DNA from: a bacterium
GTDB lineage: Bacteria; Bacillota; Clostridia; Oscillospirales; CAG-272
NCBI GenBank assembly: GCA_963628435.1
Contig: CAVGEY010000008.1
Coordinates: 12,614-76,613 of the forward strand
Reading direction: 5' to 3'
Length of the DNA: 64,000 nucleotides
Below, piece after piece: positions 1,535-16,202 of the stretch; positions within the stretch are counted from its first letter, which is position 1, and every line of letters starts with the position of its first letter. Below the pieces are notes generated by a model that saw only the letters and a program-made list of their open reading frames with translations, was not told the origin of the DNA and made no database searches. The position numbers were made by a program, and so were the translations under genes.

Positions 1535-1563
1535 TTGAAATTCTAAATAACATGTGCTAAAAT
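1535..1563 (+). promoter_or_regulatory. Sigma-70-type extended -10 promoter of the ABC/TF-like/thioredoxin operon
   Basis: TTGAAA (1535-1540), 17-nt spacer, TGc-TAAAAT (1555-1563). It lies 43 nt upstream of the GTG start, which has an AAGGAGG SD (1593-1599). Confidence 0.5.
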
Positions 1564-1606
1564 TGAGCTTATAAAATTATAATGTACATAAAAAGGAGGA
1601 CTTATT

Positions 1607-3355
1607 GTGAAGCAGACAGAGCAAGGGGATCGCATTGACATAAAAAGCAAGCGCGGAACCTGGAAACGTTTTGCAAAACTTCTCTTAAAATGCCATCTTC
1701 CGTGGTTAAGTCTGATTGCTTATATTGCGGTTTCCGTTTTCTCAATCAACACGGGTGTTGATGAAACGGATTACACCGCGCAGCTGTTTGCCGGAGATAC
1801 CAGTATTGCCCTTGTATCAACTCTTATAGGCGTAATGCTGCTGAATATGCTTTTGTCAAACCTGACCGTATTCTGCAGTAATCTGACAACATCGCAGATG
1901 AATCGTAATATGCGCAGCACACTTACCGAAAAAATTCTGCATCTTCCGATGTCGTTTTTCAAAGAAGGTAATCCCCGTGATGAAATCTACCGTATAGTTC
2001 ACAACAGCATCGTTATCAGCAGCACGGTTATGCTTGTCATTTTGCCGATTGCGTTTTGCTTTTACAAAACCGCCGTCATATTCCTGCGTGTTTTCAAATA
2101 TGATTGGCGTCTGAGTCTTATACTTATTGCATTTATACCGATTCAGATTCTTGTGGCTTTCATTTTCGGAAGAATCAATTTTTCTCTTTCGGAACGCGAA
2201 TCCGGCATCAGTGCGGGACTTACGCACCGTCTTGCCGAAATGATTACAAATATTCCTCTTGCAAAAGCGTTCGCAAAAGAAGATCGCGAAGCTGCGGAAG
2301 GAAAAAATCTTGCCGACCGACTCTACAAAAACACTGTCAAAGGCGGATGGTTCGATCAGTTGAAAGATCTTTCGGAATCGGTAATTTCATTGATACAGGC
2401 CGCAGTTATGGTAATTGTCGGTGCCCTACTTTTAAGAGACGGCAACATAACTACGCGAAACTGGGTTTCATTCTTCATGTTTTCATCAACTTTTTCGGGT
2501 GCAGTATATGAAATACTTATATACTGGAACAACTTGAAGATTATTCAGGGAGGCGGAGACCGTGTTGCGGAAATCATGTATGCCGTCGAGGAATCAAAAT
2601 CGGGTGAGACCGTCGAACATCTGTCGGGAGACATAAAAATTGAAAATGTCGAGTTCGGCTATGAGGAAAACACTTCGGTGCTGAAGAATGTCAATGCTGT
2701 TTTCCCGAAAGGAAGCAGAACGGCCCTTCTCGGAGAAAGCGGCTCGGGCAAAACAACTCTGCTGAATCTGATTCTGCGGATTTATGATCCGAAATCCGGT
2801 CGAATTACCGTTGACGGCAGAAACGTTTCCGATTATACCCTGTACGATTACCGCAGACAATTTGCCATGATTTCGCAAAATGAGATGCTGTTTTCGGGAA
2901 CCGTCCGTGAAAATCTTATTTACGGACATGAAAATACTTCGGATGAAGTTTTGATAGCCGCCGCCGAAAAAAGCGGTGCGTGGGAATTTATCTCAAAGTT
3001 TCCGCAGGGTCTTGATACAAGAATCGACGAATACGGCGGAAATCTCTCGGGCGGACAGCGTCAACGGCTCAGCTTAACACGTGCTTTGCTATCGGACGCG
3101 CCATATCTGATTCTCGATGAACCCGCAGCCGCACTTGATGCAATAGCTACCGAAAATCTCATCAATGTGCTGAAAGAAATAAGCGAAGGACGCACGCTCA
3201 TAGTCATCGGACATACGCCTTCCATTCTTCCCCTTGTCGAAAGGGCTGTGATTTTGGAAAACGGAGCCGTCGCCGCGGAAGGGCCCGTAAATGAGCTTGT
3301 ACGCACAAACAGCTTTCTACGGGCATTTACAGAGGAAAAGGAGGCAGCCGAATGA
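1607..3355 (+). CDS. ABC exporter subunit A (fused permease + ATPase, type-I exporter fold)
   Basis: 582 aa. N-terminal multi-TM domain. NBD with Walker A GESGSGKTT, signature LSGGQRQRLSL and Walker B LILDEP. GTG start behind a strong SD. Confidence 0.9.
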   Translation: MKQTEQGDRIDIKSKRGTWKRFAKLLLKCHLPWLSLIAYIAVSVFSINTGVDETDYTAQLFAGDTSIALVSTLIGVMLLNMLLSNLTVFCSNLTTSQMNRNMRSTLTEKILHLPMSFFKEGNPRDEIYRIVHNSIVISSTVMLVILPIAFCFYKTAVIFLRVFKYDWRLSLILIAFIPIQILVAFIFGRINFSLSERESGISAGLTHRLAEMITNIPLAKAFAKEDREAAEGKNLADRLYKNTVKGGWFDQLKDLSESVISLIQAAVMVIVGALLLRDGNITTRNWVSFFMFSSTFSGAVYEILIYWNNLKIIQGGGDRVAEIMYAVEESKSGETVEHLSGDIKIENVEFGYEENTSVLKNVNAVFPKGSRTALLGESGSGKTTLLNLILRIYDPKSGRITVDGRNVSDYTLYDYRRQFAMISQNEMLFSGTVRENLIYGHENTSDEVLIAAAEKSGAWEFISKFPQGLDTRIDEYGGNLSGGQRQRLSLTRALLSDAPYLILDEPAAALDAIATENLINVLKEISEGRTLIVIGHTPSILPLVERAVILENGAVAAEGPVNELVRTNSFLRAFTEEKEAAE

Positions 3356-5100
3356 AAAAAGAAAAAACTCAAGGCATGTGGAAAAACACATTCGGCCTTC
3401 TCGGACGCTTCCCGATTCCGTGGTATTTATATATTCTTCAGATTCTGCTCGGAATCGTAAGCACGAAAGTTGCCCTGCTCTACATTCCGTATTATTCAAG
3501 TATGCAGACCGGAAATCTCAGCTCGAATGTACTGTTAGGTTATATCGGATATACGGCATTAAATGTTGTCGCAACCATCGCATGTGCAATTCCGACATTT
3601 TTTGCGTCTGCGCTGATTACGCGTGAACTTCAGAAGAAGATGATTGAACATTCTCTGCGTCTTCCGATGAGTTATTACGATGAGCACCGTTCAAGCATAG
3701 TCAGCTGGATATGCAATGACTGCGGCAGTGTAAACGGTCTGATTTCATCAATCTGCAGCTTTTTTACCGGCATAGCTACAGCAGTAATGAGCAGCAGCAG
3801 CATAGGTGAATTGGACAAGTCGATGATTATGCTTGTTCCGTTCGTACTGATTCTTCTTATTCTGTTTACCCTTCTTGAAGGAAAATTGCTGTTTCTGCGT
3901 CAGCGCAGAGAAAAGCGCGCCAACAGTGAACTTACTGCTTATTTTTCCGAACATCTCAGTTATCTTCTCCAAATAAAACAGATGCACACAGAGAAAGAGG
4001 AATTGGCACGAAGCAAAAAAGCAATCGATGATTTTTATCATGCCGATTTGTATCAGCTTCTTTTGACAATGATCGACAACTTCACATCGGGCAGTCTTAC
4101 AAACATTGTGACGATTCTGGTGTTTGTTTTGGGAGTTCCCCTGGTGCGATCGGGTAAATTCGATCTTGCCGGTCTTGCGTCTTTTCAGAGTTACGTACTG
4201 CTTGCCTACAATTCCCTTTCCACGATTCCGTCGACTTATACACAGCTGATGTATTATAACGGCGAACTTTATTATATCGGCGGTATGATGAGCGAAAAAG
4301 AGGAAAAAGTCAAGCGTGTTGCGGGAATAGAATGTGAAAGTGACGATATAAATTTCAGCCATGTCAATTTCGGATACAGCAAAGAGCAGCCGATTTTGAA
4401 AGATGCATCATTTACAATTCCAAAAGGAAAAGTCACACTTCTTGTCGGTCCGAACGGAAGCGGAAAATCGACTGTTTTCCGACTGATTGAAAGATTCTAC
4501 AATCCAATATCGGGCAGAATCTCATACGGTAACCGGAATGTGGAAGAAATTCATCTGGATGAATGGCGTAAAAATATCGCATACGTACTGCAGGAGCCGA
4601 GTCTTTTTAACGGAAGTGTACGCGACAACATCACCTACGGAATGAGCCGTGATGTTACCGATGATGAGGTGGCGGCGGCGGCAAGACTTGCGTACGCCGA
4701 TGAATTTATAAGTGATCTTCCCGACGGGTATGATTTTATAATCGGCGACAACGGTTCTAAGCTGAGCGGCGGTCAGCGTCAGCGTATTGCAATAGCAAGA
4801 GCGATTATGCTGGATCCGTCTTATCTGATGCTTGACGAGGCAACCTGCAACATGGATGTATACAGTGAAAAAGCGGTTACCGATGCACTTCTCAGACTCA
4901 TGAGCGGCCGAACCACAATCATAATATCTCATGATATGCGAATGCTTAACCGTGCCGATCATGTCATCGTTTTGAAAGACGGTGTCGTAGAGGCGGACGG
5001 ATCAAGAGATGAGGTCATTCAAACAAGCGATACGCTAAAGCAGTTAATGAGCAGTAGTTCCAACGACAACGATGTCACAGACGGAAATATTATGGTATAA
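3352..5100 (+). CDS. ABC exporter subunit B (fused permease + ATPase); presumed heterodimer partner
   Basis: 582 aa, the same length as subunit A. ATGA start/stop overlap with subunit A. Walker A GPNGSGKST, signature LSGGQRQRIAIARA, Walker B LMLDEA. Confidence 0.9.
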   Translation: MKKEKTQGMWKNTFGLLGRFPIPWYLYILQILLGIVSTKVALLYIPYYSSMQTGNLSSNVLLGYIGYTALNVVATIACAIPTFFASALITRELQKKMIEHSLRLPMSYYDEHRSSIVSWICNDCGSVNGLISSICSFFTGIATAVMSSSSIGELDKSMIMLVPFVLILLILFTLLEGKLLFLRQRREKRANSELTAYFSEHLSYLLQIKQMHTEKEELARSKKAIDDFYHADLYQLLLTMIDNFTSGSLTNIVTILVFVLGVPLVRSGKFDLAGLASFQSYVLLAYNSLSTIPSTYTQLMYYNGELYYIGGMMSEKEEKVKRVAGIECESDDINFSHVNFGYSKEQPILKDASFTIPKGKVTLLVGPNGSGKSTVFRLIERFYNPISGRISYGNRNVEEIHLDEWRKNIAYVLQEPSLFNGSVRDNITYGMSRDVTDDEVAAAARLAYADEFISDLPDGYDFIIGDNGSKLSGGQRQRIAIARAIMLDPSYLMLDEATCNMDVYSEKAVTDALLRLMSGRTTIIISHDMRMLNRADHVIVLKDGVVEADGSRDEVIQTSDTLKQLMSSSSNDNDVTDGNIMV

Positions 5101-5120
5101 TATGCAAAAAAGGAGTTTTT

Positions 5121-5978
5121 ATGAAATCTTCAATCAATACTCTCACCGATTACAAAAAAGTTCCGATAAATACGGAAATACTTATCACACCCTTAAGCGA
5201 AGGTGAAATTGAAAAGAAAATCCATGCGCTCAGTCGCAGTCGCAAAGAGGTTATTCATCCCGATGTAATTCAAAAAGGCGATGCTGTCGTATTGACACTT
5301 CAGAGTGAAAATTCCCGTTTTAACAAAAAAATGCTTCCGGTTACGGTCGGAAGCGGATTATACGACATAGAGTTTGAGCAGATGATCATCGGTCTCAAAA
5401 GCGGAAAAACCGAAAAGATTCACGCAGCCGACAGTGATATAACCGTTACCGTCCGCTCAATAACACGCACGATTTTCCCCGAGCCGACAAAAGAAGAAAT
5501 TAAGACGCTTGCCGAATCGCTTGATCCTCCGCAGAACTTTTCAACGGTTTCGGAATACGCGGAATATCTGCGGCAAGAACACATACACGATCAGCGCGAA
5601 TCGGCGGTATATGAAATTATGCAGGACATTCTCGACGGAGTGCTGACGACAAGTGACTGGGCATTTGACGAGGGAGAGGTTGACGAACAATACCGTCAGG
5701 GTGTTGCCGAGCTTAATGAGCAGGCAAAACAGGAGTTAGGCAAATCGTACGAAGAGCTGACAGATGATGATATAAAGGCAAATATAGGCCCCGAAAATCG
5801 TGCCGAGCTTGAAAAGCTGATGCACGATAATGCCGAAAGTCTGATTGCATCCGTTCTTTTCTTCGGACATCTGAAAGGTATATCACCCGAAAATCTGAGT
5901 CTTGACGATGAAGGCATCATGGACTATTCGATACTGGAAGCCTATGTTCGCGATATAATTACATACAAGGAGGTATAA
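5121..5978 (+). CDS. Trigger-factor-like chaperone lacking the ribosome-binding N-domain (paralog 1)
   Basis: 285 aa with no signal peptide. The pattern ...QKGDAVVL...VGSGLYDIEFEQMIIGLKSGKTEK...VTVRSITRTIFPEPTKEEIKTL... follows the TF linker, FKBP-like domain and C-terminal arm layout (GD.v.iDf / lGsG.fipgFE..l.G.k.G / v..v....lPel.def). The GFRxGxxP N-domain is absent. Confidence 0.55.
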   Translation: MKSSINTLTDYKKVPINTEILITPLSEGEIEKKIHALSRSRKEVIHPDVIQKGDAVVLTLQSENSRFNKKMLPVTVGSGLYDIEFEQMIIGLKSGKTEKIHAADSDITVTVRSITRTIFPEPTKEEIKTLAESLDPPQNFSTVSEYAEYLRQEHIHDQRESAVYEIMQDILDGVLTTSDWAFDEGEVDEQYRQGVAELNEQAKQELGKSYEELTDDDIKANIGPENRAELEKLMHDNAESLIASVLFFGHLKGISPENLSLDDEGIMDYSILEAYVRDIITYKEV

Positions 5979-5980
5979 AC

Positions 5981-6295
5981 ATGATTCAATATGCAACAGA
6001 TGATAATTTTGACAGTCTGATTTCGGAAGGAATAGTACTCGTAGACTTTTTCGGCAAATTCTGCGGACCATGCAAGCTGGTTGCGCGTGAACTTGAGGAA
6101 ATCGATGACGAACTTCCGTTTGTCAATATCGTTAAGGTAGACACCGATGACTGTCCGAAAATTTCGGAGAGATATCGCATCAGCGGTATTCCGGATCTTT
6201 ATTTCTATAAAGACGGAAAGCTCGTTCATCATGAACTCGGCGCAATCAACGGAGATGCAATCCGTACAATCCTCGGCAAAATACTTTACGACTGA
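5981..6295 (+). CDS. Thioredoxin
   Basis: 104 aa. Active site FCGPCK, cis-Pro motif GIPDL. Start is 2 nt after the upstream stop. Confidence 0.9.
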   Translation: MIQYATDDNFDSLISEGIVLVDFFGKFCGPCKLVARELEEIDDELPFVNIVKVDTDDCPKISERYRISGIPDLYFYKDGKLVHHELGAINGDAIRTILGKILYD

Positions 6296-6364
6296 TAAAA
6301 ACAAACATATAAAACTGTAATTTAGGAGTTAACAACTCTGAAAATAAAAAAAGGAGAAACTATT

Positions 6365-6889
6365 ATGAAAAAAGCACTTACTCTTATTCTTTGCATCGTC
6401 ATGATTCTGTCAATGGCGGCATGCGGCACAACCGGAGAATCCGGTGAGAAAAAAGACACCGACAACTCCGAAATCCTTTCTCAGTTCCCGACAGATCTTC
6501 AGGAATGGACTGCGCAGAATTTTAATGACTACTTCAAAGCAATCGGTCTTTACACAAAAGAAGATTACATTTATGTTCAGGATCACGCGACCTATTATGT
6601 CGGAACATGCATTGACGAATGCGGCGGTTATATGGATGACGCGGGGCTTTACTTCACCGGAGTCTTTATCGTGGATGAAGACAGCACCGAAGGAAACGCA
6701 GCCGAACTTTTGAGTTATGTTAAAGAAAATCGCACATTAACCGAAGAATTCGGAAGCATGACAATTGATCACATGTGCGGACATCTGCTGATTATGGACA
6801 GCTTTACCCAAGATGAGGACTTCTACAATTCTTTTGAGTCGGCTATTAAGGATCTTGTTAAAGCCTTAGGCGCAGAACTCGATTATTGA
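6365..6889 (+). CDS. Small lipoprotein, unknown function
   Basis: 174 aa. Signal peptide with lipobox LSMAAC-G. The mature part is acidic and has three further Cys (TCIDEC, HMC). AGGAGA SD. Confidence 0.7.
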   Translation: MKKALTLILCIVMILSMAACGTTGESGEKKDTDNSEILSQFPTDLQEWTAQNFNDYFKAIGLYTKEDYIYVQDHATYYVGTCIDECGGYMDDAGLYFTGVFIVDEDSTEGNAAELLSYVKENRTLTEEFGSMTIDHMCGHLLIMDSFTQDEDFYNSFESAIKDLVKALGAELDY

Positions 6890-7695
6890 TGAAAAGTCGC
6901 TTATTAAAGTCGGCTCCTTTCGATCATGTAGAACTTCCCTCACTGGAAATCTGCCTTACCGATGAAGAGCTCGGGGATGAAATCAAACGTCATATCACCA
7001 ACGAGCTGCTTTCGCATCGATTCTATCGGACAACCGACAGAATTGAACCGGGCGACATTGCAACAGTAGTGCTAAACGGAAAGAATTTGATTATCAATGT
7101 CGGAAGCGGACTGTTTGACATCGATACCGAAAAAGAATCAGTCGGAAAAAAATGCGGGGATACCATTAAGACCGACAGTATGTCTGCACGTGTTGAAAAA
7201 ATAGAGCGTCTCATTATTCCCTCTCTTACCGATTCGTTTGTAAAAGATCTGAACATCGACGGAATATCCACAGTTCAAGGTTACAAGGACTACCTCGCAG
7301 AGTATTACCGTAATTTCTATTTTGAAAACTACCTGCTGTATTTTGCCATGGAGTTTTTTATGAACTGGATGCAGGCAAGCAAGTGGAGTTTCGACGAAGA
7401 TGAGCTAAGCAATCTGCTCGAAGAGTACCGCGCTATGGAAAAGCGCTATCTCGATGCTCACGATACCTACATTGACGGATCGGAAGAAGAACTTAACGAA
7501 TCTGCACGTGAAAATATGATGGAAACTGTCGGACAATATCTGTATCTTCAATATACAGACCCACAAAATGCTCCGACCGATCTGCATTTTGACGAAGAAG
7601 ACACGATAGAAAAAATACGATCGCTTGCGCTGCGTCCGATGATGGACTTTCTTAAAGACAAAGTTACTTTTACCGATAAGGAGGAAACTTTCTGA
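6889..7695 (+). CDS. Trigger-factor-like chaperone lacking the ribosome-binding N-domain (paralog 2)
   Basis: About 268 aa. The track starts at TTG 6886, but ATG 6889 overlaps the upstream TGA (TGATG). Same layout as 5121-5978: EPGDIATVVL...VGSGLFDIDTEKESVGKKCGDTIK...VEKIERLIIPSLTDSFVKDL. Confidence 0.55.
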   Translation: MKSRLLKSAPFDHVELPSLEICLTDEELGDEIKRHITNELLSHRFYRTTDRIEPGDIATVVLNGKNLIINVGSGLFDIDTEKESVGKKCGDTIKTDSMSARVEKIERLIIPSLTDSFVKDLNIDGISTVQGYKDYLAEYYRNFYFENYLLYFAMEFFMNWMQASKWSFDEDELSNLLEEYRAMEKRYLDAHDTYIDGSEEELNESARENMMETVGQYLYLQYTDPQNAPTDLHFDEEDTIEKIRSLALRPMMDFLKDKVTFTDKEETF

Positions 7696-8342
7696 TGGCT
7701 GTTTCAGTTGCTACCGATCAAAATTTTGACTCCCTTATCGAAAACGGTGTTTGTCTTATAGACTTTTATACGACACACTGCGGTCCGTGTCGTGTTCTAC
7801 TTACAAAACTACTTGAACTTGAGGGAAAATATCCGTTCTTTCGGCTTGTTAAAGTGAATCTCGACAACTGTCCCGAACTTTCAAGGCGTTTTCTGATTGA
7901 GTTTACTCCGACCGTATATCTTTCCAAAGACGGAAATTTAGAGGAATATCGGGGGCTTACCGACAAAAACAGTCTTGCTCACGCATTGGGGGAGCTCTAT
8001 TACGAGGGAATAAACGGAAGAATACCGGCAGAGTTCGAGCCGGACGAAACGGATGATGAAGAACTGACGGATTCGACTGATTCGGAGTCCGAAAATTCAC
8101 CTGTCGACAGCTCGGATAACGCAAAAATCAAACCGATTATTCGATTGAATGAAGACAAAGAAATTGTCGCAAATGTCAAGGCCGGTTTGAAAGCCAAGGG
8201 CGGCTACTGTCCTTGCCGTGTGGAACAATCCCCGGACACAAAATGCATGTGTAAGGAATTCAGAGATCAGATTGCAGACCCCTCTTTCGAGGGATACTGT
8301 CACTGCCTTTTGTATTACAAGGGCTATCCGAAAAATAAATAA
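7695..8342 (+). CDS. Thioredoxin fused to a ferredoxin:thioredoxin reductase catalytic-subunit-like (FTRc) Cys-rich domain
   Basis: 215 aa. Residues 1-105 form a Trx fold with HCGPCR, paralogous to 5981-6295. An acidic linker EFEPDETDDEELTDSTDSESENSPVDSSDN follows. The C-terminus IVANVKAGLKAKGGYCPCRVEQSPDTKCMCKEFRDQIADPSFEGYCHCLLYY carries the CPC...CxC...CHC cysteine set of FTR catalytic subunits. TGATG overlap with the upstream gene. Confidence 0.7.
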   Translation: MAVSVATDQNFDSLIENGVCLIDFYTTHCGPCRVLLTKLLELEGKYPFFRLVKVNLDNCPELSRRFLIEFTPTVYLSKDGNLEEYRGLTDKNSLAHALGELYYEGINGRIPAEFEPDETDDEELTDSTDSESENSPVDSSDNAKIKPIIRLNEDKEIVANVKAGLKAKGGYCPCRVEQSPDTKCMCKEFRDQIADPSFEGYCHCLLYYKGYPKNK

Positions 8343-8355
8343 AGATCCGAAAACA

Positions 8356-8400
8356 ATCGGGACTATCGGCAAAATGCCGATAGTCCCGATTTGAATTTTT
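8356..8400. terminator. Bidirectional rho-independent terminator between convergent operons
   Basis: Perfect 15-bp stem atcgggactatcggc / gccgatagtcccgat (8356-8370 / 8376-8390) with a 5-nt loop. T-rich tracts flank it on both strands. Confidence 0.8.
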
Positions 8401-8420: not shown

Positions 8421-10238
8421 TTATGTGAGTAAATCGATTACTTTCAGAACAATATCATCATAATCTGTATCATAGCTTAAAATATCAATCATTTCAAGCT
8501 CGCCGTCTCTCATAACAACCAGCGCATAATTTGTAAAATAACGGTAGCCGTAAATATCGGAAATGATTGCGCGATAGAGATATGCGTCATTTACCAGTTT
8601 TTTTACCGTCAACGGCATTTCTTCCGACGAATATGTAAATGTTTCTCCTTCGGTGAAACTGCGTGACGATGTATAATCGGAAAATTCATCATACATAATT
8701 GTGATCTCATCGCCGTCTTTAAGCTCGGTCATCCGGTCGGTACTGTCATCTCTCGGCGCATAGCCGGAAATCTGCAGTTCGTGAGTGGTTTTATTGTAGA
8801 TAAATTCAAGATTGCACAATTCCCCGTTTACCTTAATTACAGAGGAATACAATGTATAGTTTTCCAACTCACTGATAACCTGACAGTTCAGTATGCATCC
8901 GTTGAATGTAACCCAGTTACCGACAAAGTCAACGGTATATTCATTGCCGTTTTCGATAATGTCGGTATCGTGACCGATGCCCCAGAATTTATATTCCCCA
9001 TTCAAAAGAGCCGCAAAATCGGCACGGTAAAGTGTATACTGCACCGAGCATACGGATTTATCCGATTCCGAGGTGAGCGAAAAAAAGAGTTTTCCGTCTT
9101 TAGCTTCACCGCGATTTATAAATTCGATTTCAGAAACAACACCGTCCGAAAAATAGTCTGCAATATAGTCGGCATAATCCAAATTTGCAACATTTGCAAG
9201 ATAACCGGCGAGGTAAGACTGATCGCCAAGCGGAAAATAAAAACTAAGTCCGCATGCGTCACTTCGGGCATCTCCGTTTCGGGTATAGATACATTCGGAC
9301 AAATCATACTCGATTCCGAGATATTCGGCTACACCGCCGAGATCATAAAGATCGCTTCCGCCATCGTATATACTGCTTGAGCCGAACTGAATCGAATGAT
9401 AGGCTGCCCGTGCAATTTGATTTTTTTCGCCATTCGACAGTTTTTTCAAAATCTGCGAAGATAATTTATTGACAATATCGAATTTAGTGAGATCAACGAG
9501 CGACATCGTATAGTAGTTTTTGTCGGCGTGCTTTTCGGCATATCCGTCAACTGCCTGCTTCAAATCATCGAGGTGAGTCAAAAGCGAGACATAATCCCAG
9601 CCGGATGACGGCTCAAGCTCCTCCGATGCAATCATTTTTTCGGCATAAGGTTCCATCAGGCAGGCGGTCTCATAATTCGCCATCAGGCAGGCGTCAAAGC
9701 CGACAAATGAAAATTTTTTCGTAAGATTCGCGGATTTCATTGCCGAAACAAGCTCGCTCAGACTAAGCAAATCTCCCTTGAAAAGTTCGTCTTTGCATAC
9801 TCCTTTGGCAGAGCCTCCGCCGTGATCCCAAAGAATCACGGCGGTATTTTCCGAAGGATAGTTTTCAAGTCCGAATTTCAGAAATGATGCCAGTGTTTCG
9901 GAACTTCCCATGTTTACCATTGGATTTGACTCGACAAGTTTCAGTTCTTTATCTTCGATGATATAGCGGTTCGAGCGGTCCGACGGGATATCATATTTAC
10001 GCCATGTTTTAGCACCGCCTGTCTGAATGACAACCGTCGTACCTTCGGGAATATCGGCAGCAAGCATTTCGGTAATATTCTTTGTCGCCGCACCGTTTCT
10101 TGTTTCAAGATCGCTGCCGCACATGTAGATGAGCAGTGTAAAGTTATTTTTCTTTTCGGCACATCCGCCGATAATGATTAACGAAACAGTCAATGTAAAT
10201 GCAAGGAGCAGGGATAGTGTTCTCCTATTCGGTTTCAT
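8421..10238 (-). CDS. Clostripain-like cysteine peptidase (family C11) lipoprotein with a beta-rich C-terminal extension
   Basis: 605 aa. Lipobox IIGGC. LLIYMCGSDLE start of the C11 fold. Catalytic His in AVILWDHGGG and catalytic Cys in FVGFDACLMA. Confidence 0.8.
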   Translation of the reverse strand: MKPNRRTLSLLLAFTLTVSLIIIGGCAEKKNNFTLLIYMCGSDLETRNGAATKNITEMLAADIPEGTTVVIQTGGAKTWRKYDIPSDRSNRYIIEDKELKLVESNPMVNMGSSETLASFLKFGLENYPSENTAVILWDHGGGSAKGVCKDELFKGDLLSLSELVSAMKSANLTKKFSFVGFDACLMANYETACLMEPYAEKMIASEELEPSSGWDYVSLLTHLDDLKQAVDGYAEKHADKNYYTMSLVDLTKFDIVNKLSSQILKKLSNGEKNQIARAAYHSIQFGSSSIYDGGSDLYDLGGVAEYLGIEYDLSECIYTRNGDARSDACGLSFYFPLGDQSYLAGYLANVANLDYADYIADYFSDGVVSEIEFINRGEAKDGKLFFSLTSESDKSVCSVQYTLYRADFAALLNGEYKFWGIGHDTDIIENGNEYTVDFVGNWVTFNGCILNCQVISELENYTLYSSVIKVNGELCNLEFIYNKTTHELQISGYAPRDDSTDRMTELKDGDEITIMYDEFSDYTSSRSFTEGETFTYSSEEMPLTVKKLVNDAYLYRAIISDIYGYRYFTNYALVVMRDGELEMIDILSYDTDYDDIVLKVIDLLT

Positions 10239-10255
10239 AACACTCCTTTGCGGTA

Positions 10256-13174
10256 TCAGAAATTATATTCTTCCGCAGGTTTAAGATAATACATACCGTA
10301 ATCAAAATAGTGATCCCAAACAACAGCATGTTGTATGTCTTCCGCCGCACCCGGAAAATTTGCCATCCATGCTATTTGAGCTTTTCTATCCGACTCATCT
10401 GACCAAGTCCATTTTTCATGCTTGTCCAAATATTCCACTCTCCTATATACTCCTCTGTAACCCAAATATTTGCCATACCTCGTTTCGGGAGTGGAATATG
10501 TTTTCATAATATCTGCGGTAAAATATCCAACAGTGCAAAGAGCATACAAATTATTGTCCATTATAATAGGGCGATTTGACCAGTATTCGAAATTTCCGAC
10601 GGTATTATCCAAAAGAATGGGATTTAAGTCGAGCGTTCGGTCTTCGTCCGGATTTACCGACTCCGGATTAACCGCATCACCGAGCAGCTGAAGTTCCTCT
10701 CTGAGCGTTCTTCCCTGCATTCTTTTGAGAAATTCTTTCAGCGCACTTTCGTTATTTACAAACCCCAAGTCGGCGGCGTAATTTGTGAATACTTCGGCAT
10801 AAGTCGTACGGCTGATTGTATAAACGCCCCACTTAAAGCGTTTGCCTGTGGCGTACATATACATTGTATCACGGTTGTGTGAATTCACTTCAAGTTCGGC
10901 CGGATTGTTATTTATGATAGCAAGACATTCGTCTATTATTGTCATTGCAGTTTTTCGGTCTCCGCCTTTTCCGTCTTGTCCGTTAAACTGTGCATACAAA
11001 TCAACATCTGCGGGATCAACACCCAGATAGTAAGACGACAGAAGCATTTTCGCTCTGACCAGATATCCCTGAATAGCGGTGCGGTAATTCCGGCGCAGCG
11101 TAAGCGACTGCGCATCAAAATTGTAGGTTTTCGCGCAGAGAGTGTCAAAGTTAAGAAGTGCATCGTTCTTTTTAAGGGAACTCGGTGTCAGCATTGTTTG
11201 GATATCTTTCAATGTTTCTACGATTTTTGATATGTTACCCGTGTACGCAAGATCCGAGTTAAGATGCTCACGTGTATATATAAGATAGTTGCGATAATAA
11301 TTTTCCCATTGAAGCTGTACATCTTCGGATGATGTACATTTACCGTTTTTATCATAGGTCAATGGGGTAACGGGAGGCGGGTTTTGAGTGTTATACGGTT
11401 TTGCAGTAGAACTGATTCTGCCCTCGCAAAGATCAAGAGAAGTTTCCAGTCTTCCCAGCAGAAGGTCGAAATCCCCTACCTGCTGTGCAAGAGCTTTGAT
11501 GTTCTGCTCTTCGAATTTCTCATAGACGTTATTAAAAGAGGCATTGATTTCATCACGCATATCAACCAAATAATTATAGATTTTATCGAGCTTTGCTTTT
11601 TCCGATTCAATAACCCCAACCATTTCAAGGACATTGTAGATTCCGCTGCCGATTGACACACCTGCCGAAAACAGAGAGCCGACTGTTCCGAATGCCGTAT
11701 TTCCGAAGCCTCCGACAATACCCTTAATAATCTGGACATCGCTGTCACTCAGAGCCTTGCCCATTTCGGAATATGTATAATTACGGCTGTTTTCTTTCTT
11801 TGATGAAGTTCCGCCCCAGTCGCATATCAGCGAGCCCTCGGCAAGAATAACCGTTCCGAAGAGATTCATTTCTTCAACCGAAGCAGAGTCGGACAATACG
11901 GTCAAAACAAGAGTCGAAACAGTGTCCGAATCGCGTGTCAGAGAAGAAATCTCGGCATCCGCAAAATCATCTGCGAAAGAAATCATATTCTCGGAAAGGT
12001 CGGCGGCAAATGTTCCGCCCGAAGCATAAAGTTTAAGCGTAATCGTACAGGTCTTGTTGTTTATTTCGGCATAATCAAACACGGGGTAAAAAGATGCCTG
12101 TGAAATTCCCACCGTGACATCAAGGTCATAACCGCCGTTCAATGCCGTTTTTGCGATAACAAGAGATTTACAGAAAATCGCATCGGCAATATCGTTCGGT
12201 GTACTCTTTCCGTCTACGGTAAAATAAAGAGTACCCGTAGTGTCATCCTTCTTTTCAAAGGCAGTAACTGCGGCTCCGTCAAGCGTAAAGTCCGAAGCCG
12301 ACGGATTTTCGCCGAATGTATCCCAGTAAAGTTTGATGTCAAACGAAGCGGTCCCGTCTTTAACGGCGAAAGTTGTTGAATCAGCCGCTGCCGAAACATC
12401 GTTTACGCCTATGCATACCGATATATCCGAATATCCGTTTTCAAATCCGTCCTTATCAATATAGACGAATCCATCGGTATAACAACCCGACGATTTATTA
12501 TATACAATTTCTCCGGTCAGCTGAAGTGTCAGATTTTTACCGGCAGAGCTTACCGATGCAACCGCCATATTTTCAAATGAACCCGCAAGTGTAATATTCT
12601 CCGTCGTGACACCGGAAGCGAAATTATCGTTTTCCAAAGTCATTGTCAGTTTAATTGTTTTGGTATCGGGGGTAACATTTTCGGTGTCACAGGTAATGTT
12701 TTTTCCGGTACTTACAGACACACATACAGTTACATCCGATTTCTCACCTATTGAGTCAGCGGCAAGCTTTACAATATAGCCCGATACATTGTTTTCGGAC
12801 TCGGCGTCGACGAAAGAAACTTCCAAACTACTGTCGTCTTTTCTGTTTACCGAAGTAATCGTAACACTCGATTCGATAAGCGATTCGGATGTCTCATCGG
12901 TTGTTACGGCATTTTCGGATGCTATGCTATTAAACATTTTATACTCTTCGCTCGCATAGGTGGTAAGTGTGATATCATCGACATCAACGCTTTTTTTGAA
13001 GCTCATACCGCCGAGAGTGACCGTTGTGGTATACACACCGTCTTTGCGGTAATCGACGGATGAAGCGGACACCGTCTTCTCGGTCTGATTTCCGGAGCAG
13101 CCGAAAAGTCCTATGCATGTAGCCGCGCACATCAGCAATGCCAACAACCTTTTACCATAGTCATTGTGTTTCAT
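10256..13174 (-). CDS. Large surface lipoprotein, unknown function (beta-repeat N-half, glycine-zipper segment, helical C-half)
   Basis: 972 aa. Lipobox LFGCSGN and AGGAGGA SD. Residues about 35-470 contain repeated modules of the type ..ENITLAGSFENMAVASVSSAGKNLTLQLTG.. . Residues 482-522 read IIKGIVGGFGNTAFGTVGSLFSAGVSIGSGIYNVLEMVGVI. A coiled-coil-like and Trp/Tyr-rich C-terminal half follows. It ends 17 nt upstream of the C11 peptidase gene. Confidence 0.8.
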   Translation of the reverse strand: MKHNDYGKRLLALLMCAATCIGLFGCSGNQTEKTVSASSVDYRKDGVYTTTVTLGGMSFKKSVDVDDITLTTYASEEYKMFNSIASENAVTTDETSESLIESSVTITSVNRKDDSSLEVSFVDAESENNVSGYIVKLAADSIGEKSDVTVCVSVSTGKNITCDTENVTPDTKTIKLTMTLENDNFASGVTTENITLAGSFENMAVASVSSAGKNLTLQLTGEIVYNKSSGCYTDGFVYIDKDGFENGYSDISVCIGVNDVSAAADSTTFAVKDGTASFDIKLYWDTFGENPSASDFTLDGAAVTAFEKKDDTTGTLYFTVDGKSTPNDIADAIFCKSLVIAKTALNGGYDLDVTVGISQASFYPVFDYAEINNKTCTITLKLYASGGTFAADLSENMISFADDFADAEISSLTRDSDTVSTLVLTVLSDSASVEEMNLFGTVILAEGSLICDWGGTSSKKENSRNYTYSEMGKALSDSDVQIIKGIVGGFGNTAFGTVGSLFSAGVSIGSGIYNVLEMVGVIESEKAKLDKIYNYLVDMRDEINASFNNVYEKFEEQNIKALAQQVGDFDLLLGRLETSLDLCEGRISSTAKPYNTQNPPPVTPLTYDKNGKCTSSEDVQLQWENYYRNYLIYTREHLNSDLAYTGNISKIVETLKDIQTMLTPSSLKKNDALLNFDTLCAKTYNFDAQSLTLRRNYRTAIQGYLVRAKMLLSSYYLGVDPADVDLYAQFNGQDGKGGDRKTAMTIIDECLAIINNNPAELEVNSHNRDTMYMYATGKRFKWGVYTISRTTYAEVFTNYAADLGFVNNESALKEFLKRMQGRTLREELQLLGDAVNPESVNPDEDRTLDLNPILLDNTVGNFEYWSNRPIIMDNNLYALCTVGYFTADIMKTYSTPETRYGKYLGYRGVYRRVEYLDKHEKWTWSDESDRKAQIAWMANFPGAAEDIQHAVVWDHYFDYGMYYLKPAEEYNF

Positions 13175-13705: not shown

Positions 13706-14746
13706 ATGACCTTTGTCAGAAACTTTTTGATTTCCTTTCTGATTGCATTTATAGTGTTTGCCCCTCTTGCATATTTCGGTCTCAATTATGTGATTGACAG
13801 CGTTGAAGCCGCCGGAAAGCCCGACAGCGAGAACAATAATACCGATGTAAGCAGCAGCGATAATCAGGAAAATATCGATACCGGTGCAGGCTCAATAACG
13901 ATGCTTATGATAGCAAGATCAGACAATCCGGATTACAGTCAGTCGGCCAATATTGAAACGGAAGGCATTGAAACCGAAACTGCCGAAACAGAAGCTGCTG
14001 TAACTCAAAGTCCGGATGAAAATCTGCTTCCGCGTTTACAAAAAGCAAATCCCGAAAAAATCGTCGATTTCGTTACAATAGTAAGCGTCAATACCGACAG
14101 TAAAAAGGCCGTCATTACCGCTATTCCCGGAAATCTCAAGGTCGAGTTCAAAGGTGTTGCGATGAGCCTTTCGGACGCGCTTTACTATGCCGATTTGCCG
14201 GAATATAATGTTGACAAAAATTATGTTGCGGATTTATTCACAAGCTGTACCGGAATTGCAATAGACTGTTACACGTATGTGGAAACATCGGATTTCACCC
14301 GTGCGGCCGATTCACTCGGAAAGTTGACAGTAGATTTTCCCGAAGCGATAACAATTTATGACGGTGCAACAAGATTTTTCCCGAAAGGAGAAAACACCCT
14401 TTCTTCCGCGGATTTGAAATCGCTGATCGGATACGGCAATTACACCAATCCTCTGCTCAAATATCAACTGATATCCGCAATGTGCAAAGCGATACTCAAT
14501 CAAGGCTGTACATCATCAGGCTTTTCGAATTTTGAGCAAACATGGGCCCGCATATCGGTATACATGGATTATGACATAGGAAGCTACACAACGCCGCGTT
14601 CCGCAGCCGAAAAACTGTTTGAATACAGAAACTGCTCTCCGATTATTGTAAATGTCATCGGACAATTTACAACATCGGGCGACAAAAGCTATTTTGAACT
14701 TGACAGAACCAATACGATATCACAAATAAAGCAATACGGATTTTAA
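13706..14746 (+). CDS. Membrane-anchored LytR-CpsA-Psr (LCP)-like protein, divergent
   Basis: 346 aa with an N-terminal TM helix. [10 protein letters not shown]...[29 protein letters not shown]...LSDALYY...[29 protein letters not shown] follows the LCP core order (llG.DsR / sDtimlvsi....k....siPRD / inaAy / idhyv.v.f.gf..lvd.lGGv.v). The conserved Arg positions are replaced (PGN for PRD), and a Glu/Thr-rich insert is present. Confidence 0.35.
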
Positions 14747-14780
14747 CAATTTATTTATTTCACATAAAGGAGTTGACATT

Positions 14781-16202
14781 ATGAAAAATAATGAAAAAAC
14801 AATGGATAAAATCGTTGCCCTCTGCAAAAATCGCGGTTTCATCTTTGCGGGGAGCGAAATATACGGCGGACTTGCCAACACATGGGACTACGGTCCGCTC
14901 GGAGTTGAACTGAAAAACAATGTTAAAAAAGCCTGGTGGAAGAAATTCGTACAGGAAAACCGTTATAATGTCGGACAGGATGCTGCAATTCTCATGAATC
15001 CGCAGACCTGGGTTGCGAGCGGACATCTGAGCGGATTTTCGGATCCGCTTATGGACTGCAAGGAATGCAAGGAGAGATTCCGCGCCGATAAACTCATCGA
15101 AGACTGGTGCAGCGAAAAGTCATATCAGCTGCAAAAACCGATTGATGCTTTTTCACAAAGCGAGATGAAAGATTTTATCGAAGAGAACAATATCCCCTGC
15201 CCGTCCTGCGGAAAACACAATTTTACAGACATAAGACAGTTCAATCTGATGTTCAAGACATTTCAGGGAGTCACCGAAGATGCAAAAAACACCGTTTATC
15301 TCCGTCCCGAAACAGCACAAGGCATTTTTACGAACTTTGTTAATGTTCAGCGTACAACCAGACGCAAGCTTCCGTTCGGCGTATGTCAGATAGGCAAATC
15401 GTTCAGAAACGAAATCACTCCCGGCAACTTCATTTTCCGTGTCCGCGAATTTGAGCAGATGGAACTTGAATTTTTCTGCAAACCCGGCACAGATCTCGAA
15501 TGGTTCAGCTACTGGCGCACATTCTGTAAGAACTGGCTTCTTTCAATTGGTCTGAAAGAGGAAAACATACGTCTGCGCGATCACTCTCCCGAAGAGCTTT
15601 GTTTTTATTCAAAAGCAACGACCGATTTTGAGTTTTTATTCCCGTTCGGCTGGGGTGAACTGTGGGGAGTTGCCGATCGTACAGATTATGACCTTACACA
15701 GCATCAGAATGTTTCCGGAAAAGATTTGACTTATTTCGATCCCGAAACAAATGAGAGATATATTCCGTATGTTGTCGAACCTTCGCTCGGTGTTGAGAGA
15801 AGTGTTCTTGCCGTACTTTGCGATGCATACGATGAGGAAGTCGTAGACGCAGAGAAAAATGACATTCGCTGCGTTCTGCATCTGCATCCGGCTCTCGCAC
15901 CGTACAAGGCAGCGGTTTTGCCGCTTTCCAAAAAGCTCAGTGAGCCTGCTCAAAAAATTTACGATGAACTCAGCAAATACTGGATGGTTGATTTTGACGA
16001 GGCCGGTTCAATAGGAAAGAGATACCGCCGTGAAGATGAAATCGGCACACCTTTCTGCATAACAGTTGACTTCGATACTGTCGGAAATGACGAAAAGGCC
16101 GGCGACAACTGCGTAACTATCCGTGACAGAGACAGCATGGAACAAGTTCGCATTCCGATTGCATCGATTAAAGATTATATCGCAGAGAAAACAGAATTTT
16201 GA
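14781..16202 (+). CDS. glyQS: Glycine--tRNA ligase (alpha2 type)
   Basis: 473 aa. [40 protein letters not shown] and class II aaRS motifs ([25 protein letters not shown]). Confidence 0.95.

Follow-up and report, generated by a model that had tools for sequence, protein, structure and literature searches.

A conserved module of ABC transporter, trigger-factor-like protein, thioredoxin and lipoprotein genes in gut and rumen Clostridia, and its variant in a CAG-272 genome

A chaperone may be dedicated to one exported client, the precedent being PceT, a trigger factor (TF) homologue without an N-domain, and an ATP-binding cassette (ABC) exporter may depend on an anti-folding chaperone, as in the SecB-dependent secretion of HasA. 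In Clostridia, pairs formed by a thioredoxin (Trx) and the flavoprotein thioredoxin reductase FFTR are known as stress-response systems, and one of them, trxA2-trxB4 (FFTR) of C. difficile, is encoded beside genes for an ABC transporter and for a two-component system (PMC10880999). Here we describe an operon of seven genes (g1 to g7; Table 1) in which components of these kinds are encoded side by side. It lies in a 64,000-nt stretch of DNA, referred to below as the window, from a bacterium of the CAG-272 lineage of Oscillospirales (assembly GCA_963628435.1, contig CAVGEY010000008.1, positions 12,614 to 76,613 of the forward strand). It represents, in this genome, a module that is conserved among gut and rumen Clostridia and has so far gone unnamed; the invariant core of the module consists of an ABC pair, a TF-like protein, a thioredoxin and a surface lipoprotein.

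Each part of the module is of a known kind (ABCB-type half-transporters, the TF fold, thioredoxin, ferredoxin thioredoxin reductase (FTR) or FFTR, an M16C peptidase, and an AgrC/LytTR regulatory pair), and it is their combination that is undescribed in the literature searched. An ABC exporter with a dedicated, ribosome-independent TF chaperone and its own ferredoxin-driven thioredoxin system has not been described before, and the components are annotated only generically or as hypothetical proteins. An earlier reading of this DNA, made from the sequence alone, had likewise known of no system with such a gene composition, and no published description was found; a literature search for clusters of TF-like, thioredoxin and ABC genes, and for clostridial FTR-like proteins, yielded no pertinent paper, a result that is weak evidence at its incomplete coverage.

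The case for a module rests on the comparison of 20 distinct loci, which were gathered through genome and metagenome scans (the latter queried with 22 closer TF-like sequences) and context look-ups. They come from metagenome-assembled genomes (MAGs) labeled Oscillospiraceae, Lachnospiraceae, "Eubacterium" and "Ruminiclostridium", and from rumen and gut metagenomes; tallies were made by tblastn and count only those loci in which the relevant sequence is readable. A TF-like gene is followed directly by a thioredoxin gene in 18 of 18 loci, the ABC pair stands directly upstream of the TF-like gene in 18 of 19, and orthologues of the lipoprotein g5 occur in all 16 readable loci. The single exception to the ABC-before-TF order, locus L030, is rearranged (TF, Trx, lipoprotein, ABC, ABC, second lipoprotein, LytTR regulator) and keeps the gene set. 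The flanking genes differ completely between loci, the linkage is kept even for TF-like members that are ~25% identical to g3, and every member of the TF-like family that was sampled lies in an ABC/Trx context. Since gene order is kept in 20 diverged loci while the flanks change, chance adjacency is ruled out. The sequence-only reading had proposed conservation in related genomes as a check on the arrangement, and it is indeed conserved, across families of Clostridia.

Around this core, several elements vary. The sequence-only reading had described two TF-Trx modules, which is correct for the window and does not hold as a general layout, the second pair being optional (5 of 10 loci). Orthologous second TF copies are found in L009, L011, L013 and L014, and the same four loci carry stand-alone orthologues of the second thioredoxin (Trx2), of 102-104 amino acids (aa). 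Similarly, the placement of the lipoprotein gene between the two pairs stands for the window and fails as a fixed position, since L009 has a g5-like gene after the second pair. The peculiarities of the window are the fusion of Trx2 to a short FTR-like domain, the loss of AgrC/LytTR control and the lack of an M16C peptidase.

An exhaustive HMMER profile search for the TF-like family, clustered at 50% identity, recovered 807 representatives at E<=1e-3; of these, 366 reach E<=1e-10 and 66 reach E<=1e-30. All of the best 150 of the 807 are 124-330 aa in length, with no full-length TF among them. There are thus hundreds of such clusters, each sampled member stands beside a thioredoxin gene and an ABC pair, and the module is accordingly widespread in gut and rumen Clostridia. 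A word-indexed homologue search with g3 found only 3 close clusters among 5.8 billion.

In the window, all coordinates given by the sequence-only reading for seven packed, co-directional genes at 1607-8342, and for the junctions between them, were reproduced, and it is from this packing that g1 to g7 are predicted to be co-transcribed as one operon. A consensus scan found the same extended -10 promoter at 1535-1563 that had been noted before. The hairpin behind g7, previously taken for a perfect 15-bp structure, has a stem of 17 pairs, and because it sits between convergent genes it is possibly bidirectional. Both the promoter call (sigma-70-type) and the hairpin call are consensus or sequence matches only. 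The ATG of g6 at 6889 has an in-frame TTG alternative at 6886. Two independent assemblies, L003 and L004, contain the operon with identical flanks, so the 215-aa Trx-FTR fusion encoded by g7 is not an assembly artefact. The GC content of the operon shows no island-like anomaly, and no Rfam element, riboswitch or leader RNA was found in the 370 nt upstream of g1.

The TF-like proteins are the component by which the family was traced. Against the NCBIfam tig model (TIGR00115), g3 aligns with E 9e-12 and 44.5 bits (cut-off 180.2) over tig positions 107-336 only, so that it begins at the linker preceding the peptidyl-prolyl isomerase (PPIase) domain and comprises an FKBP-like domain and the TF C-terminal arm domain. 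Its paralogue g6 (30% identical to g3, E 7e-14) scores 15.7 bits against tig and matches the NCBIfam trig_like_plasma model at E 5.6e-10, below the cut-off. A PDB sequence search with g3 alone returned no relevant chain, and fold comparison was used instead. An AlphaFold2 (AF2) model of g3, built on an 87-sequence alignment, reached a predicted local distance difference test (pLDDT) score of 97.6, and trigger factors take the first eight places among its Foldseek matches in the PDB (E 4e-11 to 1.5e-5), with FKBP domains coming next. Neither g3 nor g6 contains a GFR motif of the ribosome-binding N-domain (GFRxGxxP), the g3 model is without that domain, and no signal peptide is present in either protein. 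On the partial tig alignment, the AF2 model and the Foldseek matches, g3 and g6 are thus relatives of trigger factor that retain the PPIase domain and arm and lack the ribosome-binding domain, which is also how they had been read from the sequence.

Both thioredoxins of the window match Pfam Thioredoxin (PF00085) well above the cut-off of 23.5 bits, at E 7e-22 and 77.8 bits for g4 and at 1e-16 and 61.2 bits for g7, and with their CGPC motifs they confirm the earlier assignment of two thioredoxins. Neither reaches the equivalog cut-off for TrxA (81.7 and 51.3 vs 96.8), their thioredoxin domains are 39% identical to each other, and the cis-proline region (IPD / PTV) is conserved. The CxxC motif is kept in every Trx orthologue, those of g4 reading C-G/V/I-P-C. 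A third cysteine, at residue 58 of g4 and residue 59 of g7, is invariant in all Trx1 and Trx2 orthologues within a D-x-C-P motif; its position is that of Cys62 in human Trx1.

The C-terminal domain of g7, behind an acidic linker that is missing from orthologues, had been described as an Fe-S reductase-like domain, and this description can now be made more precise. The domain itself scores 17.3 bits (E 0.005) against Pfam FeThRed_B (PF02943), short of the cut-off of 22, and all 28 aligned members of its family match PF02943, the best at 8.6e-9. Eight residues (C31 P32 C33, C43 C45, C61 H62 C63) are invariant in these 28 members including the window domain, in which they read CPC...CMC...CHC. 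Stand-alone homologues of ~65 aa, here called mini-FTRs, form at least 1206 clusters (70-84% identity). The name "ferredoxin thioredoxin reductase catalytic beta chain" is attached to some of them, and a precomputed PF02943 assignment to many. Of the homologues that were looked up, the closest is encoded by a gene standing on its own, and the same is true of another abundant member; a fusion to thioredoxin is absent from all of the 120 best homologues. A free mini-FTR of 66 aa, 70% identical to the g7 domain, is encoded at the end of the L001 operon, and among the loci compared the Trx-FTR fusion is peculiar to the window genome. PDB sequence searches, both with the domain and with a profile of 28 sequences, returned no relevant or FTR chain, and no gene for an FTR variable subunit was seen in the loci. 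By its cysteine pattern and family matches, the g7 C-terminus is predicted to be related to the FTR catalytic chain, as a short form that normally exists as a free protein.

Where the window and L001 have a mini-FTR, L009, L010 and L014 encode a flavoprotein of 291-301 aa. Its best PDB matches are 6GNC, 6GNA and 6GND at E 1e-85, as against 1e-37 for ordinary thioredoxin reductases; of these structures, 6GNC is FFTR2 of C. acetobutylicum and 6GND is its complex with Trx2 (PMC8469568). The flavoprotein contains the CATC motif and lacks both the second GxGxxA and the HRRxxxR motif, two absences that separate FFTRs from NADPH enzymes (PMC10880999), and it is accordingly identified, by sequence, as a predicted ferredoxin-dependent FFTR. 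A mini-FTR or an FFTR is encoded in the cluster in five of nine loci. That some loci carry a mini-FTR and others the unrelated FFTR implies that two predicted ferredoxin-dependent thioredoxin reductases are interchangeable in the module, and this interchangeability is the best evidence that thioredoxin turnover belongs to the module's function and that the thioredoxins are cytoplasmic. Moreover, Trx2 is fused to a predicted ferredoxin-dependent Fe-S domain, and no signal peptide or transmembrane (TM) segment is found in the g7 sequence, which argues for a cytoplasmic location as well. A thioredoxin as the exported cargo of the adjacent TF-like chaperone was considered and rejected, given the Trx2 fusion to the Fe-S domain and the reductases in the cluster. 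In L009 alone, a DUF4253 protein of 263 aa (13990-14781) is inserted between the lipoprotein and FFTR genes.

The transporter subunits g1 and g2 each combine the Pfam domains ABC_membrane and ABC_tran and are 28% identical to each other; g1 orthologues, 44-58% identical, were found in all loci. The Walker A, LSGGQ, Walker B glutamate and H-loop histidine motifs are canonical in both nucleotide-binding domains (NBDs), in g1 and g2 as in every orthologue, which implies a heterodimer with two catalytic ATP sites. Neither subunit approaches any NCBIfam equivalog cut-off, the models for MsbA, HepA, LssB/HlyB, TAP and CydD scoring 225-300 bits against cut-offs of 435-875, and the PDB relatives include ABCB1 (P-glycoprotein), ABCB4, BSEP, BmrA, Sav1866 and MsbA. 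The pair is thus predicted, from its motifs and profile scores, to be a generic type-IV exporter heterodimer with both ATP sites catalytic. In most ABC1 orthologues (L001, L007, L009, L011-L014, L018) the Walker A loop contains a cysteine (GxSGCGKT), and the NBD has three more conserved cysteines; these positions are occupied by A, S, I and T in the window g1 (residues 364, 380, 438 and 530). These cysteines could signify redox regulation of the transporter in the relatives, lost in the window. A DsbD-like electron relay through the transporter was rejected, as no conserved cysteine pair was found in the transmembrane domains (TMDs) of the orthologue alignment, and the NBD/P-loop cysteines of most ABC1 orthologues are replaced in the window.

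Control of the module appears to differ between the window and most of its relatives. In seven loci (L009-L014 and L018), genes for a histidine kinase of AgrC type, with SPOB_a and HATPase_c_5 domains and a multi-TM N-terminus, and for a LytTR response regulator lie directly upstream of ABC1; L030 has its LytTR regulator downstream instead. All seven of the kinase-regulator loci carry a LytTR box before ABC1, consisting of two 9-bp direct repeats (consensus ATAGACAAN) with a 12-bp spacer; a T-rich stretch and then a -10 box come after them. Two 9-bp repeats and a 12-bp spacer are the textbook geometry of a LytTR box, and in most relatives the operon would be switched on by the kinase and regulator through this site. 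The proximal repeat lies within a conserved inverted repeat (GCACGATAGACA...CTATTGTGC; Table 1) that is followed by a T-run, so the element could be both the regulator's site and the terminator of the kinase-regulator transcript. The stem is unusually conserved for loci whose proteins are only 30-60% identical.

In the window, there is no LytTR box before g1 and no kinase or regulator homologue in the 64 kb, and this genome seems either to have lost AgrC/LytTR control or never to have had it, with a plain sigma-70-type promoter in its place. LytTR-box-like matches with three mismatches do occur more often in the window than expected from shuffles (6 observed vs 0.61, at 10908, 31046, 37563, 42332, 43124 and 43565); those at 42-44 kb, the three inspected, lie inside the coding sequences of a GdpP-like DHH phosphodiesterase, rplI and dnaB and were judged to be compositional chance. 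A divergent LacI-family gene adjoins the operon upstream, and between it and g1 an 18-nt direct repeat is found at 1337-1354 and 1475-1492 (AAATGTTACTATGCAATA / AAATGAAACTATGCGATA), 138 nt apart, which could be an operator pair for the LacI-family regulator.

All readings of the function have in common a post-translational holdase beside its own ferredoxin-fed thioredoxin, the two being linked genetically to an ATP-driven membrane transporter and a surface lipoprotein. The likely task of the module is to carry a peptide or protein with cysteines across the membrane, a cysteine-bearing polypeptide being the simplest substrate for a TF-like protein and a thioredoxin together. The scheme that we tentatively favor, while giving it somewhat less than an even chance, is one in which a client is held unfolded, kept or made reduced, and translocated, with export as the likelier direction because the type-IV ABC fold almost always exports. 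LytTR-controlled ABC systems in Firmicutes are, moreover, typically peptide exporters. We infer a polypeptide substrate that bears cysteines, the direction in which it is transported, and what the lipoprotein and the M16C peptidase do. In this scheme, the TF-like holdase would be unable to dock on the ribosome and would bind a cysteine-containing peptide or small protein post-translationally, holding it unfolded, while a thioredoxin translationally coupled to the holdase would keep or make the client's cysteines reduced. The thioredoxin would be recharged from ferredoxin, here by the fused mini-FTR with its predicted [4Fe-4S] domain and elsewhere by a free mini-FTR or an FFTR. The ABC pair would then translocate the unfolded chain, more probably outward, and the lipoprotein would act on it at the outer face; in the four loci that encode it, the M16C peptidase would trim or clear the peptide.

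A number of observations weigh against this scheme. Peptide-export loci normally carry a precursor gene, and none came to light: an all-against-all tblastx comparison of the loci with known genes masked revealed no conserved small open reading frame (ORF), small ORFs preceded by a ribosome-binding site (RBS) ahead of ABC1 included nothing conserved or cysteine-rich, no AgrD-like or cysteine-rich gene lies upstream of the kinases, and the small ORFs of L030 offered no AgrD-like, conserved or cysteine-rich candidate, although very short, fast-evolving peptides could escape all of these tests. Both ABC subunits lack a C39 peptidase domain by Pfam, their TMDs starting near residue 30-58, and matches to the bacteriocin_ABC and NHLM models begin at model position ~165-195, past the peptidase domain. 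M16C/PreP-type enzymes are known as degraders of unstructured peptides and not as leader peptidases. Finally, in a strictly anaerobic cytoplasm nascent cysteines should stay reduced anyway, so a dedicated thioredoxin and reductase would better fit an oxidized, incoming substrate.

The lipoprotein adds to these difficulties. Its mature domain is modeled by AF2 with pLDDT >90, yet it has neither a recognizable fold (no match in the PDB, best E 0.72) nor a conserved cysteine pair; moreover, no Pfam family covers it, and all sources label it a hypothetical protein. The one semi-conserved cysteine outside the lipobox is missing in three orthologues. As a redox client g5 was thus rejected for want of a conserved cysteine pair, and the sequence-only reading's candidate, in which the operon lipoprotein was the client, fares poorly on the same grounds. 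Any role assigned to g5 is a guess. Two g5-like secreted or lipoprotein paralogues with a shared Y..G..LYWWDL motif are encoded in L030 (2181-2669 and 6204-6677), one on each side of the ABC pair.

Among the competing explanations, the one that survives best turns the direction around: the module would neutralize or consume a disulfide-rich peptide from outside the cell, which might be a bacteriocin, a defensin of the host or a cystine-rich peptide from the diet. An AgrC-type kinase would sense the peptide, the lipoprotein would bind it, and the ABC pair would import it or expel its fragments; inside, ferredoxin-fed thioredoxin would open its disulfides, the TF-like holdase would keep it unfolded, and an M16C peptidasome would degrade it. 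Such a scheme accounts better than the favored one for a catalytic reductase in the cluster of an anaerobe (a mini-FTR or FFTR in the five of nine loci mentioned above), for the missing precursor gene and for the invariance of the lipoprotein (16/16), which recalls LanI-type immunity lipoproteins or binding proteins; it accounts as well for the control by a sensor kinase. The company kept by the M16C peptidase is likewise better explained. This PreP-like enzyme of ~960 aa, with M16C_assoc and PreP_C domains, is encoded in L001, L009, L010 and L014, in all four of which its gene adjoins the reductase gene (in L010 the two overlap; in L001 it directly follows the lipoprotein gene), and it digests unstructured peptides only. 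In L001 the M16C gene is split into ORFs of 163 aa (5358-5849) and 803 aa (5837-8248) that together make up the full-length enzyme, the split being a frameshift that reflects either a pseudogene or a MAG assembly error.

On the other side of the ledger, importing type-IV ABC transporters are rare, and under the capture scheme the ABC pair must either import through an exporter fold or serve to export fragments. AgrC-type kinases mostly sense self-made peptides, the lipoprotein is without a binding-protein fold, the M16C peptidase is present in only four of ten loci and has no homologue in the window, and the window operon has no kinase or regulator. We regard capture and degradation as the main rival, though an unlikely one, and as slightly more doubtful still the bolder statement that the module is categorically different, namely a ferredoxin-powered reductive capture-and-destroy machine for disulfide-rich peptides that forms a closed circuit and uses a lipoprotein of novel fold for capture.

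An improbable alternative is that the ABC pair exports reductant or cofactor in the manner of CydDC, with thioredoxin reducing a low-molecular-weight disulfide, the transporter exporting a thiol or haem so that the surface is kept reduced, and the TF-like protein as an accessory or regulatory component. Gut anaerobes use extracellular thiol shuttles, electrons should flow steadily if the operon has a thioredoxin system supplied by ferredoxin, and both CydD and CydC models are matched by the ABC subunits, with E-values of 1e-61 to 1e-70. However, g1 scores 236 bits against CydD and 206 against CydC (g2, 225 and 179), far below the equivalog cut-offs of 435 and 329, and the MsbA, HepA, HlyB and TAP models do as well or better; neither the flanks in the window nor any of the related loci contain cytochrome bd genes (cydAB). 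The link to CydDC-type exporters suggested by the sequence-only reading is accordingly not borne out. Reductant export would, in addition, give no role to a holdase invariantly coupled to a thioredoxin (18/18) or to the M16C peptidase, and the TMDs have no conserved cysteine pair for an electron relay.

Equally improbable is a role in proteostasis under oxidative stress, in which the TF-like protein, thioredoxin and M16C peptidase would repair or clear oxidized cytoplasmic proteins and the ABC pair would export the resulting peptides, a proposed parallel being the peptide exporter Mdl1 alongside PreP in mitochondria. In its favor are the co-occurrence of the M16C peptidase with a reductase, the 292 bits scored by g2 (ABC2) against the TAP-type peptide transporter model, and the known clostridial FFTR/Trx stress-response pairs (PMC10880999). 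Its weaknesses are that control lies with an AgrC/LytTR pair, not with a known redox sensor, that the invariant surface lipoprotein is given no role, and that the module is rare and accessory and not housekeeping, as shown by the few close clusters found with g3. Reductant export and proteostasis are both possible but weaker explanations, in that each leaves invariant components unexplained. Last, that an ordinary multidrug exporter merely happens to stand beside TF-like, thioredoxin and lipoprotein genes is very improbable: the ABC pair does fall short of every specific equivalog model and does resemble BmrA, Sav1866 and P-glycoprotein, and flanking genes do differ between loci, but the order is kept in all 20 loci while those flanks change completely, the linkage is intact down to ~25% TF-like identity, start and stop codons overlap or nearly abut, and the rearranged L030 retains the same gene set.

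Should the favored scheme of holding, reducing and exporting a client be true, it would represent a new accessory-protein logic for ABC transport, in which a substrate is held and reduced before translocation, and it would provide a first physiological role for the abundant ~65-aa mini-FTR proteins and for the short TF homologues. It would also point to a cysteine-containing signal, toxin or nutrient that is sensed via AgrC/LytTR. If the capture-and-destroy alternative were true instead, bacteria would possess in this module their own equivalent of reductive retro-translocation and degradation, which could serve in defense against defensins or bacteriocins or in the harvest of cystine-rich gut peptides. 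In either event, the natural Trx-FTR fusion is a ready tool with which to ask whether mini-FTRs reduce thioredoxin.

Two further genes adjoin the window operon in convergent orientation. The first (8421-10238, minus strand) encodes a 605-aa lipoprotein with a clostripain-family Peptidase_C11 domain, and the second (10256-13174, minus strand) a 972-aa lipoprotein-like protein with zero Pfam matches. This pair (8421-13174) is shared with L003 and L004 and with none of the other related loci, and it is therefore probably unrelated to the module.

Table 1. Features of the operon in the window, and inverted-repeat regions upstream of ABC1 in related loci (numbered within each locus)
Feature	Position	Strand	Description
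Promoter-like site	1535-1563	+	TTGAAA-17-TAAAAT, extended -10 TG; 10/12 consensus matches; ~45 nt 5' of g1
g1	1607-3355	+	ABC half-transporter 1, TMD-NBD, 582 aa, type-IV exporter fold; GTG start behind AAGGAGG
g2	3352-5100	+	ABC half-transporter 2, 582 aa; ATGA overlap with g1; presumed heterodimer partner
g3	5121-5978	+	TF-like protein 1, 285 aa; 20-nt gap after g2
g4	5981-6295	+	Thioredoxin 1, 104 aa, CGPC, predicted cytoplasmic; 2-nt gap after g3
g5	6365-6889	+	Lipoprotein, 174 aa, lipobox LSMAAC; 69-nt gap after g4
g6	6889-7695	+	TF-like protein 2, 268 aa, paralogue of g3; TGATG overlap with g5
g7	7695-8342	+	Trx-FTR fusion, 215 aa; TGATG overlap with g6
g7, N-terminal domain	7695-8006	+	Thioredoxin 2, HCGPC
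g7, linker	8007-8138	+	Acidic, low-complexity, ~44 aa, GINGRIPAEFEPDETDDEELTDSTDSESENSPVDSSDNAKIKP; orthologues without linker
g7, C-terminal domain	8139-8342	+	Residues 149-215; FTR-catalytic-chain-like, CPC-x9-CxC-x15-CHC; predicted [4Fe-4S]/disulfide module
Terminator-like hairpin	8355-8391	+	17-pair stem (9 G-C), loop of 3, then moderate T-run
Inverted-repeat region, L009	6270-6460		
Inverted-repeat region, L010	2080-2190		
Inverted-repeat region, L011	2060-2170		
Inverted-repeat region, L012	265-475		
Inverted-repeat region, L013	2165-2300		
Inverted-repeat region, L014	6395-6530		
Inverted-repeat region, L018	955-1105		

Compared with described systems, the closest likeness in chaperone logic is to PceT/RdhT, where a TF homologue without an N-domain is likewise encoded with the machinery that it serves and is presumed to hold a single client before translocation. 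The likeness goes no further than the N-domain-less TF architecture. PceT/RdhT works with the twin-arginine translocation (Tat) pathway, whereas the partners in the module are an ABC transporter and a thioredoxin, and no rdhA/rdhB or Tat-signal client gene is present in any locus examined. The HasA system differs in being a Gram-negative, three-component type I secretion system served by a general chaperone, as opposed to a Gram-positive-type heterodimer with a dedicated TF-like protein, thioredoxin and lipoprotein.

The nearest parallels overall are the glycocin F (gccA-F), sublancin (sunT/bdbA/bdbB) and pediocin (pedC/pedD) systems, which resemble the module of the relatives in combining a LytTR regulator, an ABC exporter and one or two Trx-family proteins that serve a cysteine-containing exported peptide, and the L030 thioredoxin has a weak PedC-like Pfam match. 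However, the ABC exporters of glycocin and pediocin systems carry the C39 peptidase domain that the module's transporters lack, and their Trx-like proteins are extracytoplasmic or membrane-anchored oxidases, in contrast to predicted cytoplasmic CGPC thioredoxins with ferredoxin-dependent reductases. Those clusters carry precursors but no TF-like gene, and the module is without a precursor, glycosyltransferase or immunity gene. CydDC, for its part, shares with g1 and g2 the heterodimer of two ~580-aa TMD-NBD halves and a redox link, but it has no TF-like or thioredoxin partner genes.

On the redox side, the module resembles the clostridial FFTR/Trx and the plant and cyanobacterial FTR/Trx systems in the ferredoxin-dependent reduction, here predicted, of a dedicated thioredoxin. 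The mini-FTR, of which we know of no assay, has ~65 aa compared with ~110 aa for the FTR catalytic chain, and the module includes no variable subunit. The FFTR encoded in L009, L010 and L014 is closely related to FFTR2 from C. acetobutylicum (E 1e-85), and the C-terminal domain of g7 retains all six FTR cysteines together with the histidine of the CHC motif.

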